Position numbers and translations under genes: made by a program. Source: a virus. Taken from it: DNA of 64,000 nucleotides. Positions within the stretch are counted from its first letter, which is position 1, and each line of letters opens with the position of its first letter. Of this stretch, positions 14,516 through 63,853 are shown one piece after another. The notes beneath the pieces are model-generated. The model was not told the origin of the DNA and did not search any database. It worked only from the letters and a program-made list of their open reading frames with translations. The stretch lies in the UHGV virus genome UHGV-0171999, one strand, 5' to 3'.

Positions 14516-14519
14516 CTGT

Positions 14520-14549
14520 TTACTTTTCCTCTTGACTGTGGTATAATTT
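14520..14549 (+). promoter_or_regulatory. T4 early promoter upstream of regB
   Basis: GTTTAC, 18-nt spacer, TGGTATAAT. Confidence 0.65.
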
Positions 14550-14574: not shown

Positions 14575-15036
14575 ATGACTATCAACACAGAAGTTTTTAT
14601 CCGTCGAAATAAGCTCCGTCGTCACTTTGAGTCGGAGTTTCGTCAAATTAACAATGAGATTCGTGAGGCATCAAAAGCAGCAGGGGTCTCATCGTTTCAT
14701 CTAAAATATTCTCAACATCTTCTTGATCGTGCAATTCAACGGGAGATTGATGAGACATATGTTTTTGAATTATTCCATAAAATAAAAGACCATGTTTTAG
14801 AAGTTAATGAATTCCTGAGTATGCCTCCGCGTCCTGACATTGACGAGGATTTTATCGATGGGGTTGAATATCGTCCTGGGCGTTTAGAAATCACAGATGG
14901 AAATCTTTGGCTTGGATTTACAGTTTGTAAACCTAACGCGAAGTTCAAAGACCCGTCACTTCAATGTAGGATGGCCATTATCAACAGCCGTCGTTTACCA
15001 GGAAAGGCTTCTAAAGCAGTAATTAAAACTCAATGA
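14575..15036 (+). CDS. regB: endoribonuclease RegB
   Basis: MTINTEVFIRRNKLRRHFESEFRQ...; 153 aa as T4 RegB. Confidence 0.85.
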   Translation: MTINTEVFIRRNKLRRHFESEFRQINNEIREASKAAGVSSFHLKYSQHLLDRAIQREIDETYVFELFHKIKDHVLEVNEFLSMPPRPDIDEDFIDGVEYRPGRLEITDGNLWLGFTVCKPNAKFKDPSLQCRMAIINSRRLPGKASKAVIKTQ

Positions 15037-15043
15037 GGTAAGC

Positions 15044-15589
15044 ATGAGAAAAGCACTACTCGCTGGTCTATTGGCCATTTCAATGATGGCACATAGCTCC
15101 GAGCATACTTTCAGTAATGTCCAACTCGATAACATGCGTTACGCGTATCAATTCGGGGAACAATTTTCTAAGGATGGAAAATATAAAACACACAAAAATA
15201 TCCATAAAAGCGGATTAGGTCATATAATGGCTGCTATTTTATGGCAAGAAAGCTCTGCCGGAGTTAATTTAAAATCTAAACCGAAGCATCATGCCTACGG
15301 AATGTTCCAAAACTATTTGCCGACCATGCGTGCAAGAGTTAAGGAACTTGGTTATAATATGACCGATGCCGAAATAAAAAGAATGTTGAATAAACGGTCC
15401 AATTCAGCTTCCTGGGCGTACATTGAACTTTCTTATTGGTTAAATATACATAAGGGTGATATAAGAAAGGCAATATCCTCTTATAATTCGGGATGGAATG
15501 TTAAAGCAGGTTCTAAATATGCTTCTGAAGTCCTAGAAAAGGCTAACTACTTTAAAAATAATAAACTACTGGAAATAGTAAATGACTAA
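15044..15589 (+). CDS. secreted hypothetical protein (vs.1-like)
   Basis: 181 aa with N-terminal signal peptide MRKALLAGLLAISMMAHS. Confidence 0.6.
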   Translation: MRKALLAGLLAISMMAHSSEHTFSNVQLDNMRYAYQFGEQFSKDGKYKTHKNIHKSGLGHIMAAILWQESSAGVNLKSKPKHHAYGMFQNYLPTMRARVKELGYNMTDAEIKRMLNKRSNSASWAYIELSYWLNIHKGDIRKAISSYNSGWNVKAGSKYASEVLEKANYFKNNKLLEIVND

Positions 15590-15929
15590 AATTTTGGTTT
15601 TATGTATAGGATTAATTTCATTTTCTGCTTATGCGTCAGCAGATATATCATATTCTGAAGTTAGAGAGTATGTAAACCGTACTGCCGCGGATTATTGTGG
15701 GAAAAATAAAGCATGCCAAGCTGAATTTGCACAGAAATTAATATATGCATATAAAGACGGAGAAAGAGATAAATCAAGCAGATACAAAAACGATACATTA
15801 TTAAAACGATATGCTAAAAAGTGGAATACCTTAGAATGTTCAGTTGCGGAGGAGAAAGATAAAGCCGCTTGTCATTCAATGGTTGACCGTTTGGTAGATT
15901 CTTATAATCGAGGATTGAGTACTAGATGA
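15582..15929 (+). CDS. vs: valyl-tRNA synthetase modifier-like protein
   Basis: 115 aa with signal-like N-terminus; size and position between regB and tk as T4 vs. Confidence 0.55.
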   Translation: MTKILVLCIGLISFSAYASADISYSEVREYVNRTAADYCGKNKACQAEFAQKLIYAYKDGERDKSSRYKNDTLLKRYAKKWNTLECSVAEEKDKAACHSMVDRLVDSYNRGLSTR

Positions 15930-16405
15930 TTGTAAAATATATCAAGGGCGATATTGTCGCCCTATTTCTTCAAGGTAATATTATTGCGCACGGGTGCAAT
16001 TGCTTCCACACAATGGGCTCTGGTGTAGCTGGTCAATTAGCAAGAGCCTATCCCAAAATTTTAGAAATAGATAAGACCACAACTGAATATGGTTCGCGTG
16101 AAAAACTCGGTGATATGTCTATTGTTTTTAGACATAAACCTAATGGTTTTGGTATATGCTATAACCTGTATACACAATACGAACCAGGTCCTAATCTTGA
16201 TTATGGTGCTTTAGTAAACTGCATGATAGAATTAAATCTACAGGCAGAAACCCTTTTGTTTAAACCAGTAATTTACATTCCACGCATAGGTTGTGGTATT
16301 GCTGGCGGTGATTGGGATAAGGTTTCTAAATTAATCGACATGTTTACTCCTGATATTGATTTAATAGTGGTGGATTATGAAAGTACATTACCCACATCCG
16401 TTTGA
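15926..16405 (+). CDS. macro domain protein (ADP-ribose binding/hydrolase fold)
   Basis: Motifs IIAHGCNCFHTMGSGVAGQL and IYIPRIGCGIAGGD resemble macro-domain signatures. Confidence 0.55.
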   Translation: MIVKYIKGDIVALFLQGNIIAHGCNCFHTMGSGVAGQLARAYPKILEIDKTTTEYGSREKLGDMSIVFRHKPNGFGICYNLYTQYEPGPNLDYGALVNCMIELNLQAETLLFKPVIYIPRIGCGIAGGDWDKVSKLIDMFTPDIDLIVVDYESTLPTSV

Positions 16406-16589
16406 TCCTAAAAACAAAGCAGAAATTATTCGTCAATGGGAACGCATTTGCCGTACTAAATGCCCAATTAATAGTCCTCATGATGTAGATAAAGACTATA
16501 TTGGAACATTCGTTGAATATACCTTCATTGATAGGAAAGGTCGTAAACAACATGTAGAAGAATATTGCTTAAAGGTTACATGGTTATGA
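16377..16589 (+). CDS. hypothetical protein
   Basis: 70-aa ORF overlapping the 3' end of the macro-domain gene; GGTGG Shine-Dalgarno. Confidence 0.4.
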   Translation: MKVHYPHPFDPKNKAEIIRQWERICRTKCPINSPHDVDKDYIGTFVEYTFIDRKGRKQHVEEYCLKVTWL

Positions 16590-16792
16590 GCCAAACTAGT
16601 ATTCTTAAAAATGCCCATTGTGAAAAGTGTAAATGGCCTGTTGTTTTTGCTTTATGTAATGATGAAATGGCCTGTGATTTCGACTATTGGTGCTATTGTT
16701 CTAATAAAGGATGCATCAATCATAAAGGTGAAGGATTTTATTCAGGATTTTATCCTTATCCTGATTTCGTTAAAGAAGGTAAACCAAAATGA
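16586..16792 (+). CDS. small Cys-rich protein
   Basis: ATGA overlap start; CEKCKW...CNDEMACDFDYWCYCSNKGC. Confidence 0.5.
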   Translation: MSQTSILKNAHCEKCKWPVVFALCNDEMACDFDYWCYCSNKGCINHKGEGFYSGFYPYPDFVKEGKPK

Positions 16793-16962
16793 ATAATTTT
16801 GAGTTACAATATGAAGTGTTACGTGAGCTTGATAATTTAATTGAACTCGCTGTTAATAAAGGTTTTGCCATTGGAATCGGTCAAAAAGATACTGACCATT
16901 TAACTACGGAAATATTTAAGCAAAAGCGAATTATTTTAAAACTCCTGGAAATTAATATATGA
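16789..16962 (+). CDS. small hypothetical protein
   Basis: 57-aa ORF (below the 60-aa track threshold) coupled by ATGA overlaps on both sides. Confidence 0.4.
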   Translation: MNNFELQYEVLRELDNLIELAVNKGFAIGIGQKDTDHLTTEIFKQKRIILKLLEINI

Positions 16963-17144
16963 GTCTAAGTAAAGAACAAAAAGATAAATTGTTTGAGCTT
17001 ATCCATGAACTTCTAGATGAGCATGCAGAAGCAAACACCTTTTATGATGAATACGGCCCGCTATCTCCCGAACAACAAGAAGAATTTGCTGACCGGTTTG
17101 ATAAGAAAGAAAACGAATTAATAGCTTATGTGAATACGCTTTAA
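16959..17144 (+). CDS. small acidic hypothetical protein
   Basis: 61-aa ORF just upstream of tk. Confidence 0.5.
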   Translation: MSLSKEQKDKLFELIHELLDEHAEANTFYDEYGPLSPEQQEEFADRFDKKENELIAYVNTL

Positions 17145-17153
17145 GAAGGTGAT

Positions 17154-17735
17154 ATGGCGAGTTTAATTTTTACTTATGCAGCAATGAATGCTGGAAAATC
17201 TGCTTCTCTTTTGACTGCCGCACATAATTATAAAGAACGTGGGATGAGTGTATTAGTTCTTAAGCCTGCTATTGATACTCGCGATTCTGTCTGTGAAGTC
17301 GTTTCTCGCATTGGAATTAAGCAGGAAGCGAATATTATTACGGATGATATGGATATTTTTGAGTTCTATAAATGGGCTGAAGCACAAAAAGATATTCATT
17401 GCGTATTTGTAGATGAAGCTCAATTTTTAAAAACTGAACAGGTGCATCAATTAAGCCGAATTGTTGATACATATAATGTTCCTGTTATGGCTTATGGTCT
17501 AAGGACTGATTTCGCTGGAAAATTATTTGAAGGTTCTAAAGAACTTTTGGCGATTGCAGATAAACTTATTGAACTGAAGGCAGTTTGTCATTGCGGCAAA
17601 AAAGCGATTATGACAGCTCGATTAATGGAAGATGGAACACCAGTTAAAGAAGGTAATCAAATCTGTATTGGTGATGAAATTTATGTTTCTTTGTGTAGAA
17701 AACATTGGAACGAATTAACTAAAAAGCTCGGTTAG
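17154..17735 (+). CDS. tk: thymidine kinase
   Basis: P-loop YAAMNAGKS, C-terminal Cys motifs; 193 aa as T4 Tk. Confidence 0.9.
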   Translation: MASLIFTYAAMNAGKSASLLTAAHNYKERGMSVLVLKPAIDTRDSVCEVVSRIGIKQEANIITDDMDIFEFYKWAEAQKDIHCVFVDEAQFLKTEQVHQLSRIVDTYNVPVMAYGLRTDFAGKLFEGSKELLAIADKLIELKAVCHCGKKAIMTARLMEDGTPVKEGNQICIGDEIYVSLCRKHWNELTKKLG

Positions 17736-62630: not shown

Positions 62631-63254
62631 ATGATTATTAATCTTGCAGATGTTGAACAGTTATCTATAAAAGCTGAAAGTGTCGATTTTCAATATGATA
62701 TGTATAAAAAGGTCTGTGAAAAATTTACTGACTTTGAGCAGTCAGTTCTTTGGCAATGTATGGAAGCCAAAAAGAATGAAGCTCTTCATCGGCAGTTGAA
62801 TAAAATCGTTAAAAAGCATTTAACTAAATCACCTTATCAGCTATATCGTGGTATATCAAAATCGACAAAAGAACTCATTAAAGATTTACAAGTCGGAGAA
62901 GTGTTTTCAACGAACAGAGTAGATTCATTTACTACTAGTTTGCACACAGCGTGCGGTTTTTCTTATGTTGAATATTCCACTGAAATAATATTTCGCTTAA
63001 AAACTGATAAAGCTTTTAATTACTCTGACCATATCAGCGATATTATACTTTCTTCTCCTAATACTGAGTTTAAGTATACATATGAAGATACCGATGGATT
63101 AGATTCAGAACGTACTGATAACTTAATGATGATTGTACGTGAACAAGAATGGATGATTCCAATTGGAAAGTATAAAATAACTTCTATTTCAAAAGAAAAA
63201 TTACACGATTCATTTGGAACATTTAAAGTGTATGATATTGAGGTAGTTGAATGA
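62631..63254 (+). CDS. modB: ADP-ribosyltransferase ModB
   Basis: R (LYRG), S-T-S (FTTS) and ExE (EQEWMIP) motifs; 207 aa from internal ATG. Confidence 0.8.
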   Translation: MIINLADVEQLSIKAESVDFQYDMYKKVCEKFTDFEQSVLWQCMEAKKNEALHRQLNKIVKKHLTKSPYQLYRGISKSTKELIKDLQVGEVFSTNRVDSFTTSLHTACGFSYVEYSTEIIFRLKTDKAFNYSDHISDIILSSPNTEFKYTYEDTDGLDSERTDNLMMIVREQEWMIPIGKYKITSISKEKLHDSFGTFKVYDIEVVE

Positions 63255-63853
63255 AATATTCAGCAATGCAATTAAAAGATTTTAAAATCAAATCAATGGA
63301 TGCATCGGTGCGTGCTTCTATTCGTGAAGAATTACTTTCTGAAGGATTTAATTTATCCGAAATTGAACTTTTAATTCATTGTATTACTAATAAGCCAGAC
63401 GATCATTCTTGGTTAAATGAAATAATCAAATCTCGTTTGGTTCCAAACGATAAACCTCTTTGGAGAGGTGTTCCAGTTGAGACTAAGCAGGTGTTAAATC
63501 AAGGAATTGATATTATTACATTTGATAAAGTAGTATCAGCTTCATATGATAAAAATATAGCTCTACATTTTGCTTCTGGATTAGAATACAACACGCAAGT
63601 TATTTTTGAATTCAAAGCTCCTATGGTGTTTAATTTCCAGGAGTATGCTATAAAAGCTCTACGTTGTAAAGAATATAGTCCGAGTTTTAAATTTCCGGAT
63701 AGCCATCGTTATCGTAATATGGAATTAGTTTCAGATGAACAAGAAGTAATGATACCAGCTGGAAGTGTATTTAGAATTGCGGATAGATATGAGTATAAAA
63801 AGTATTCAACATACACTATCTATACTCTTGATTTTGAAGGATTTAATCTATAA
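63251..63853 (+). CDS. modA: ADP-ribosyltransferase ModA
   Basis: LWRG, SAS, EQEVMIP motifs; 200 aa as T4 ModA. Confidence 0.8.
   Translation: MKYSAMQLKDFKIKSMDASVRASIREELLSEGFNLSEIELLIHCITNKPDDHSWLNEIIKSRLVPNDKPLWRGVPVETKQVLNQGIDIITFDKVVSASYDKNIALHFASGLEYNTQVIFEFKAPMVFNFQEYAIKALRCKEYSPSFKFPDSHRYRNMELVSDEQEVMIPAGSVFRIADRYEYKKYSTYTIYTLDFEGFNL

Follow-up and report, generated by a model that had tools for sequence, protein, structure and literature searches.

A T4 tk.4/adfM ortholog on a divergent allele: a free-standing macrodomain protein that probably removes DarT2-installed ADP-ribose from phage DNA

INTRODUCTION

What does a small macrodomain protein do for a T4-like phage, and which ADP-ribose does it act on? 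The question is raised by an open reading frame at 15926-16405 of UHGV virus genome UHGV-0171999, of which we analyzed a stretch of 64,000 nucleotides, here called the 64-kb window. An earlier note on this DNA had placed a macro-domain protein there, citing two glycine-rich motifs and the vs-tk early region, and had proposed that it could either tune the ADP-ribosylation driven by the phage's own ModA and ModB or reverse host defenses based on ADP-ribosylation. The note missed the gene's identity as T4 tk.4, whose A1pp motif stands in the T4 RefSeq annotation.

The gene and its anti-DarTG2 role are already known through that T4 ortholog. In the November 2025 HIDEN-SEQ preprint, tk.4 was the single significant hit of a T4 transposon library on Escherichia coli with DarTG2, a clean tk.4 knockout was sensitized to DarTG2, and the gene received the new name adfM, for anti-DarT factor macrodomain (bioRxiv 10.1101/2025.11.20.689424). 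Its authors pointed out that Tk.4 structurally resembles Mycobacterium tuberculosis (Mtb) DarG and went no further than to say that it "seems likely" that ADP-ribose is taken off DNA enzymatically; hydrolysis by Tk.4 is drawn there from phenotype and fold only (bioRxiv 10.1101/2025.11.20.689424). Here we place the 64-kb window's gene within this family, describe its active site and its allele, and weigh what the protein may do.

RESULTS

The gene is an ortholog of T4 tk.4/adfM. It lies in the order regB, vs.1, vs, tk.4 ortholog, tk.3, three small ORFs, tk, rI.1, and rI, in line with the vs-tk placement proposed earlier: regB, vs.1, and vs stand upstream, and tk.3 and tk downstream. The features of this neighborhood are as follows.

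14519-14547, + strand: sigma-70-like promoter match upstream of regB, TTTACT-17-TATAAT with TG
14575-15036: regB
15044-15589: vs.1
15582-15929, + strand: vs (valyl-tRNA synthetase modifier), 97% identical to T4 Vs
15926-16405, + strand: tk.4/adfM ortholog, an ATG-start ORF of 159 amino acids encoding a single-domain macrodomain protein
15945-15963, no strand assigned: 8-bp hairpin AGGGCGATATTGTCGCCCT, within codons 7-13 of the tk.4 ortholog
16377-16589, + strand: tk.3 (DUF7202), 93% identity to T4
16565-16792: small ORF matching Pfam PF23895, a phage zinc-binding domain
16789-16962: small ORF without a Pfam match
16959-17144: small ORF with DUF7438, 55% identical to T4 Tk.2
17154-17735: tk

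The neighbor genes shared with T4 keep the T4 order, and their proteins are about 93-100% identical to the T4 counterparts. The T4 slot between vs and tk.3 is filled by tk.4, which encodes 155 amino acids and carries the RefSeq label "phosphatase; contains A1pp phosphatase motif," and the query protein is 57% identical (88/155) to T4 Tk.4 over the full length of the latter. In a neighbor-joining tree of 84 family members, computed without bootstrap, the query, T4 Tk.4, and all homologs found in a T-even regB/vs.1/tk context form one clade, separate from the clade of the Vibrio phages Gary and Ceto and from those clades whose members have a Namat/NAMPT-like gene nearby. Synteny and tree together identify 15926-16405 as the ortholog of T4 tk.4/adfM. 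The T-even context recurs at 26 of the 79 viral-contig loci that we compared, and 266 deposited phage records contain copies of the protein with 95-99% identity. At the DNA level, many Tequatrovirus genomes match with 95-97% identity, and their records label the gene "hypothetical protein," "phosphatase," "Poa1p-like family protein," or "Phage protein with Macro domain."

The stop codon of vs and the start codon of the tk.4 ortholog overlap as ATGA, an arrangement by which translation of the two genes may be coupled, and the 3' end of the tk.4 ortholog overlaps tk.3 by 29 nt. The best promoter-like match of the neighborhood in a consensus scan is the site upstream of regB, which we regard as a candidate early promoter for the same-strand run from regB through vs to tk.4; the protein would probably be co-expressed with the neighboring early-region genes, a timing that we infer. 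In the HIDEN-SEQ preprint, vs is the T4 gene with the strongest depletion in minimal medium (bioRxiv 10.1101/2025.11.20.689424), and vs and tk.4 thus adjoin as two conditionally important genes with overlapping stop and start codons. Within the coding sequence, AGGGCGATATTGTCGCCCT forms a perfect 8-bp stem (about -13 kcal/mol) followed by a T-rich run, a terminator-like match on both strands. This hairpin, which may serve as an attenuator within the gene or in RNA processing, is kept in T4 and, among the loci of the viral-contig scan, in three from related phages (L007, L017, and L027), despite divergence elsewhere; in the GenBank record of Yersinia phage fPS-2, a terminator is annotated beneath the gene match.

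The product is a true macrodomain of the ALC1/TARG1-like class. It matches Pfam PF01661 (Macro) with 34 bits (E = 3.1e-8; gathering cutoff, 22 bits) over profile positions 2-117 of 118, and PHROG 335 ("phosphatase") with E = 2e-71, and its sequence matches in the PDB are Bt_1257, Poa1p, SCO6735, Mtb DarG, and human TARG1. Fold prediction, which the earlier note had named as a check, recovered a macro fold, with Foldseek matches at best E = 1e-10 among TARG1, Poa1p, and DarG. The AlphaFold2 model, computed from an input alignment that left out the T4 sequence row, has a mean pLDDT of 94.7 and a pTM of 0.89. TARG1 is its top Foldseek match in the PDB (E = 1.3e-10, TM 0.73-0.82), followed by Poa1p, Bt_1257, the DarG proteins of Thermus aquaticus and M. 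tuberculosis (for DarG, E about 1e-8 and TM 0.74-0.79), and SCO6735. All named, nondesigned top matches are macrodomains; ranks 1-26 are held by ALC1/TARG1-like proteins and designed TTHA0132 variants, coronavirus Mac1 first appears at rank 27, and alphavirus macrodomains stand likewise low in the list. This places the protein in the ALC1/TARG1-like class and not with MacroD, PARG, or viral Mac1, and the ligand that it is predicted to bind is most likely ADP-ribose. The family also has members in phages of other groups, namely those of Vibrio, Acinetobacter, Pseudomonas, and Salmonella.

For the active site, we aligned 62 homologs, 38-79% identical to the query and drawn from a search of 5.8 billion proteins, and compared the family profile by hhalign with Mtb DarG (a sequence 100% identical to PDB 5M3I), TARG1, Bt_1257, and Gary Adpp. 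A pairwise phmmer register to Bt_1257, which misplaced the NLYTQ motif, was dropped in favor of the profile-profile alignment. Three motifs stand out, two of which are the glycine-rich motifs of the earlier note, both present as described there.

15980-16039, + strand: loop 1, the substrate-binding motif IIAHGCNCFHTMGSGVAGQL, residues 19-38, with invariant H22, G23, N25, C26, G33, and A35
16163-16177, + strand: NLYTQ motif, residues 80-84, ending in invariant Q84
16271-16312, + strand: loop 2, the phosphate-binding loop IYIPRIGCGIAGGD, residues 116-129, aligned to Bt_1257, SCO6735, and TARG1

Fifteen positions are invariant in the 62-sequence alignment (G8, H22, G23, N25, C26, G33, A35, D49, N80, Y82, Q84, P119, G122, G124, and W130), and the 15926-16405 protein has all of them. 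In loop 1, H22 and N25 align to the His and Asn of Bt_1257 (THICN) and of Adpp (AHQCN). Mutants are known from two other macrodomain proteins: His24 and Asn27 of SCO6735, whose closest structural homologue is listed as Bt_1257, were probed by mutagenesis (PMC9411070), and the N23A mutant of PhiKZ AdfM has reduced activity (PMC13309987). Q84, invariant in 62 of 62 relatives, aligns in the profile-profile comparison to catalytic Lys80 of DarG, to Lys84 of TARG1, and to the Gln of "MIGQ" in Bt_1257. A Gln at the position of the catalytic Lys is shared with SCO6735, Bt_1257, and Adpp, so that the Tk.4 family is, by its aligned residues, a Gln-type macrodomain family. Loop 2 follows a near-invariant family consensus, GxGIAGGDW, and within it A126 aligns to Asp125 of TARG1.

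These residues also separate the protein from its better-known relatives. DarG proper is ruled out: Q84 replaces Lys80 of the "TK" motif, a defining feature of DarG (PMC8120803), the C-terminal domain is absent, and the score against the NCBIfam DarG equivalog NF048014 is far below its cutoff (27.8 bits versus 250, with model positions 2-142 of 338 matched). A TARG1-type mechanism is likewise ruled out, the Lys84/Asp125 dyad being replaced by Q84 and A126. Nor does the query have the longer mobile loop of the SCO6735/Bt_1257 subclass, since the profile-profile alignment to Bt_1257 leaves a 5-residue gap in the query after Q84; in SCO6735 and Bt_1257, this loop exceeds that of DarG and TARG1 by five residues and has been linked to DNA handling (PMC9411070).

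The allele itself is mosaic. While the flanking proteins are 93-99.5% identical to those of T4, the query allele differs from T4 Tk.4 at 43% of positions, and at the nucleotide level, the match to T4 drops from about 100% to 40-78% identity across about 15950-16400, leaving the tk.4 gene as an island of 50-70% nucleotide identity in a T4-like backbone that is 97-100% identical. Identity recovers to 90-96% in tk.3, where the divergent cassette ends on the right. The query and T4 Tk.4 (NP_049723) agree in their slot between vs and tk.3, length (159 versus 155 amino acids), fold family, invariant residues, and clade; they differ in that the query is 4 residues longer, has the 29-nt tk.3 overlap, and carries GCGIAGGDW in loop 2, closer to the family consensus than the GAGIGKGNW of T4, which is the outlier.

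Compared with locus L007, which we take to be JS98-like, the pattern is reversed, with 82-98% nucleotide identity within tk.4 and 42-64% in vs. The Tk.4 proteins of L007-L010 are 91-94% identical to the query, while their Vs and Tk proteins are 44-46% and 69-72% identical to T4, respectively; L027 was also compared over 15950-16400 alongside these loci. This reversal between T4 and L007-L010 marks the query allele as a recombination cassette common to T-even lineages, here apparently one in common with JS98-like phages. A second island of divergence from T4, at about 16580-17150 and ∼200 nt downstream of the first, has mostly 2-52% nucleotide identity; here, T4 tk.2/tk.1 are replaced by the three small ORFs, parts of which are 66-98% identical to L007. 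Such mosaicism is typical of recombination in hyperplastic regions, and selection at an anti-defense locus is another possible source.

DISCUSSION

In this study, we asked what the macrodomain protein between vs and tk.3 may do, and we consider its most likely function to be a hydrolytic one, in which a Gln-type, SCO6735-like pocket takes DarT2-installed ADP-ribose off the thymidines of single-stranded phage DNA, a reading that we hold with moderate confidence. In the setting of this model, the host toxin DarT2 places ADP-ribose on the N3 of thymidine in single-stranded phage DNA, at TNTC motifs; the free-standing macrodomain would bind this DNA-linked ADP-ribose and hydrolyze the bond between ribose and base, so that ADP-ribose is freed and replicable DNA restored, and DarTG2 defense would be neutralized without any contact with the toxin. 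Catalysis would follow SCO6735, with Q84 positioning the distal ribose, a backbone-held water acting on the bond, and H22 and N25 shaping the pocket. By analogy with T4 Tk.4, the 57%-identical query allele would have the same activity, the chemical mechanism being likewise one that we infer. For the earlier note's two proposals, this means that reversal of a host ADP-ribosylation defense finds support in the published T4 tk.4 genetics with DarTG2, while the tuning of ModA and ModB finds none, the genes being 46 kb apart and the substrates of SCO6735, a tested relative with the same Gln-type site, being different.

The chemistry has a precedent in SCO6735 (Gln85), which outpaces both DarG and TARG1 in the cleavage of DarT-made dT-ADPr and rescues E. 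coli as well as Streptomyces coelicolor from DarT, its Q85A mutant being inactive (PMC9411070). SCO6735 works without the Lys/Asp dyad, and it has been proposed that its Gln orients the distal ribose while a backbone-held water starts the cleavage (PMC9411070). The main chemical objection to a DNA glycohydrolase that lacks the Lys falls away with this precedent. Further, PhiKZ gp104, an unrelated phage macrodomain, acts in vitro on an oligonucleotide modified by DarT2 and strips the ADP-ribose from it (PMC13309987, Cell Reports 2026), and the outcome of the T4 ortholog against DarT2 is that of DarG and of gp104.

SCO6735 (S. coelicolor, PDB 5E3B) and Bt_1257 (PDB 2FG1/2AFC) are the best PDB sequence matches of the query, yet at about 26% identity; they share with it the Gln at the Lys position, the His/Asn of loop 1, and a PRIGCG(L/I)AGGxW loop 2, but they have the mobile loop that is 5 residues longer, and theirs is a cellular DNA-damage-inducible gene rather than a phage gene. 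DarG (PDB 5M3I and 5M31) has the same ALC1-like macro fold, whereas its Lys80 "PTK" motif is a Gln here, and only DarG has a C-terminal DarT-binding domain. Human TARG1/OARD1 (PDB 4J5R), the top structural match, also cleaves dT-ADPr (PMC12879935) but does so with a Lys84/Asp125 dyad of which the query has neither residue. Among the phage proteins, PhiKZ gp104 retains FPTK, whereas T4 Tk.4 (L002, 3923-4390) and the query have Gln, which makes the two proteins called AdfM members of different macrodomain subgroups.

Against the DarT2 reading, the query lacks both the Lys with which DarG and TARG1 catalyze and the SCO6735-type mobile loop, its sequence departs from that of T4 at 43% of positions, and the closest biochemically characterized phage relative, which has the same Gln-type site, is a phosphatase, Adpp. 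According to a January 2026 preprint, Adpp of Vibrio phage Gary dephosphorylates ADPR-1''-phosphate, the product of aRES, so that NARP1 can rebuild NAD+ (bioRxiv 10.64898/2026.01.28.702374). The protein could, as its sole or its second activity, be an Adpp/Poa1p-type phosphatase that acts on a small molecule and not on DNA, for example, by turning the ADPR-1''-P made by the RES-domain NAD+ phosphorylases of aRES defense into ADPR; we consider this, the main rival, unlikely. Gary Adpp, which converts ADPR-1P to ADPR in vitro (bioRxiv 10.64898/2026.01.28.702374), is 40.6% identical to the query over 143 amino acids and matches the family profile at 99.9% in hhalign, with H-x-C-N-C, the Gln, and GCG-AGGDW in common. 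Poa1p, which also has HxCNC, is among the best sequence and structure matches, and the old annotation of the T4 gene is "phosphatase, A1pp motif." Gary Adpp (gp182, 40% identical) and yeast Poa1p thus resemble the query in belonging to the PHROG 335 "phosphatase" family and in its HxCNC, Gln, and GCG-AGGDW signatures, but Adpp has a loop after the Gln that is 7 residues longer, sits between Adps and Namat, and falls in another clade.

Genomic context bears on the same point. In the Vibrio phages Ceto (L004, 3501-3977) and Gary (L006, 3001-3477), the relative lies between genes labeled "ribose-phosphate pyrophosphokinase" and "nicotinamide phosphoribosyl transferase," and in Acinetobacter phage phi1_092033 (L005, 3501-3974), it lies beside such genes; these neighbors are the Adps and Namat of the published NARP1-AP operon, so that family members do stand within Adps-Namat operons of Vibrio and Acinetobacter phages. 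A Namat/NAMPT-like gene is found within 6 kb at 7 of the 79 viral-contig loci. Against a phosphatase role here, tblastn with Gary Adps and Namat found no homolog in the 64-kb window, and without NARP1, dephosphorylation of ADPR-1P does not rebuild NAD+. To our knowledge, the T4 gene catalogue contains no Adps or Namat either. The T-even clade is also set apart from the Gary/Ceto clade and from the Namat/NAMPT-linked clades, and the sole known phenotype of an ortholog is DarTG2 sensitivity.

Two further explanations are less likely still. The protein might counter DarT2, or some other ADP-ribosyltransferase, chiefly through contact with the enzyme or through sequestration of the ADP-ribosylated substrate rather than by catalysis, with allele turnover reflecting an arms race at a protein interface. 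In its favor, SCO6735 Q85A, DarG K80A, and TARG1 K84A, all catalytically dead, each inhibit DarT in vitro (PMC9411070), and a divergent allele island common to a different T-even lineage is unexpected, under a simple model, for an enzyme whose substrate is chemically invariant. Yet the pocket residues are all invariant in relatives down to 38% identity, which indicates selection on catalysis or ligand binding, and the second, unrelated divergence island 200 nt downstream means that ordinary recombination in T-even hyperplastic regions may account for the mosaicism; we hold a mainly binding role to be very unlikely. Still harder to credit is that the protein erases or tunes the ADP-ribosylation (or RNAylation) of host proteins by phage Alt, ModA, and ModB, as the earlier note had partly envisaged. 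The 64-kb window does encode both enzymes, as that note had stated: modB (62631-63254) and modA (63251-63853), each 96-98% identical to T4, which weakly match each other as paralogs at 27-30% identity. They lie about 46 kb from the tk.4 ortholog, so that genomic linkage is absent, and the family is spread over phages of several other groups. Alt and ModB are arginine-specific, making arginine-ADPr. The target of ModA is Arg265 on the alpha subunits of RNA polymerase (PMC8120803), and although macrodomains can be protein de-MARylases, with SCO6735 removing Glu/Asp-linked ADPr, this tested relative acts on Glu/Asp esters and thymidine (PMC9411070). A limited literature search gave no tk.4 phenotype tied to Alt/Mod targets. 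This possibility is, in our estimate, highly improbable.

Two points could be of use to specialists. One name, AdfM, has been given independently to two proteins whose active sites differ in type (Gln versus Lys). T4 AdfM, for its part, shares a family with the NARP1-linked ADPR-1P phosphatase Adpp, and its DNA-glycohydrolase mechanism is an assumed one. The gene itself is no discovery; its case shows that a sequence-only reading can pick out a genuine anti-defense enzyme. Finally, we speculate that members of the Tk.4 clade are dual hydrolases of 1''-substituents, acting on both thymidine-ADPr in DNA and ADPR-1''-P through one Gln-type pocket, with allele swapping between T-even lineages that tracks host DarT2 or RES variants through direct toxin binding and not by chemistry alone. 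We regard this combination as a long shot; if it were true, one small phage protein would be a broad-spectrum counter to several NAD+-derived defenses.
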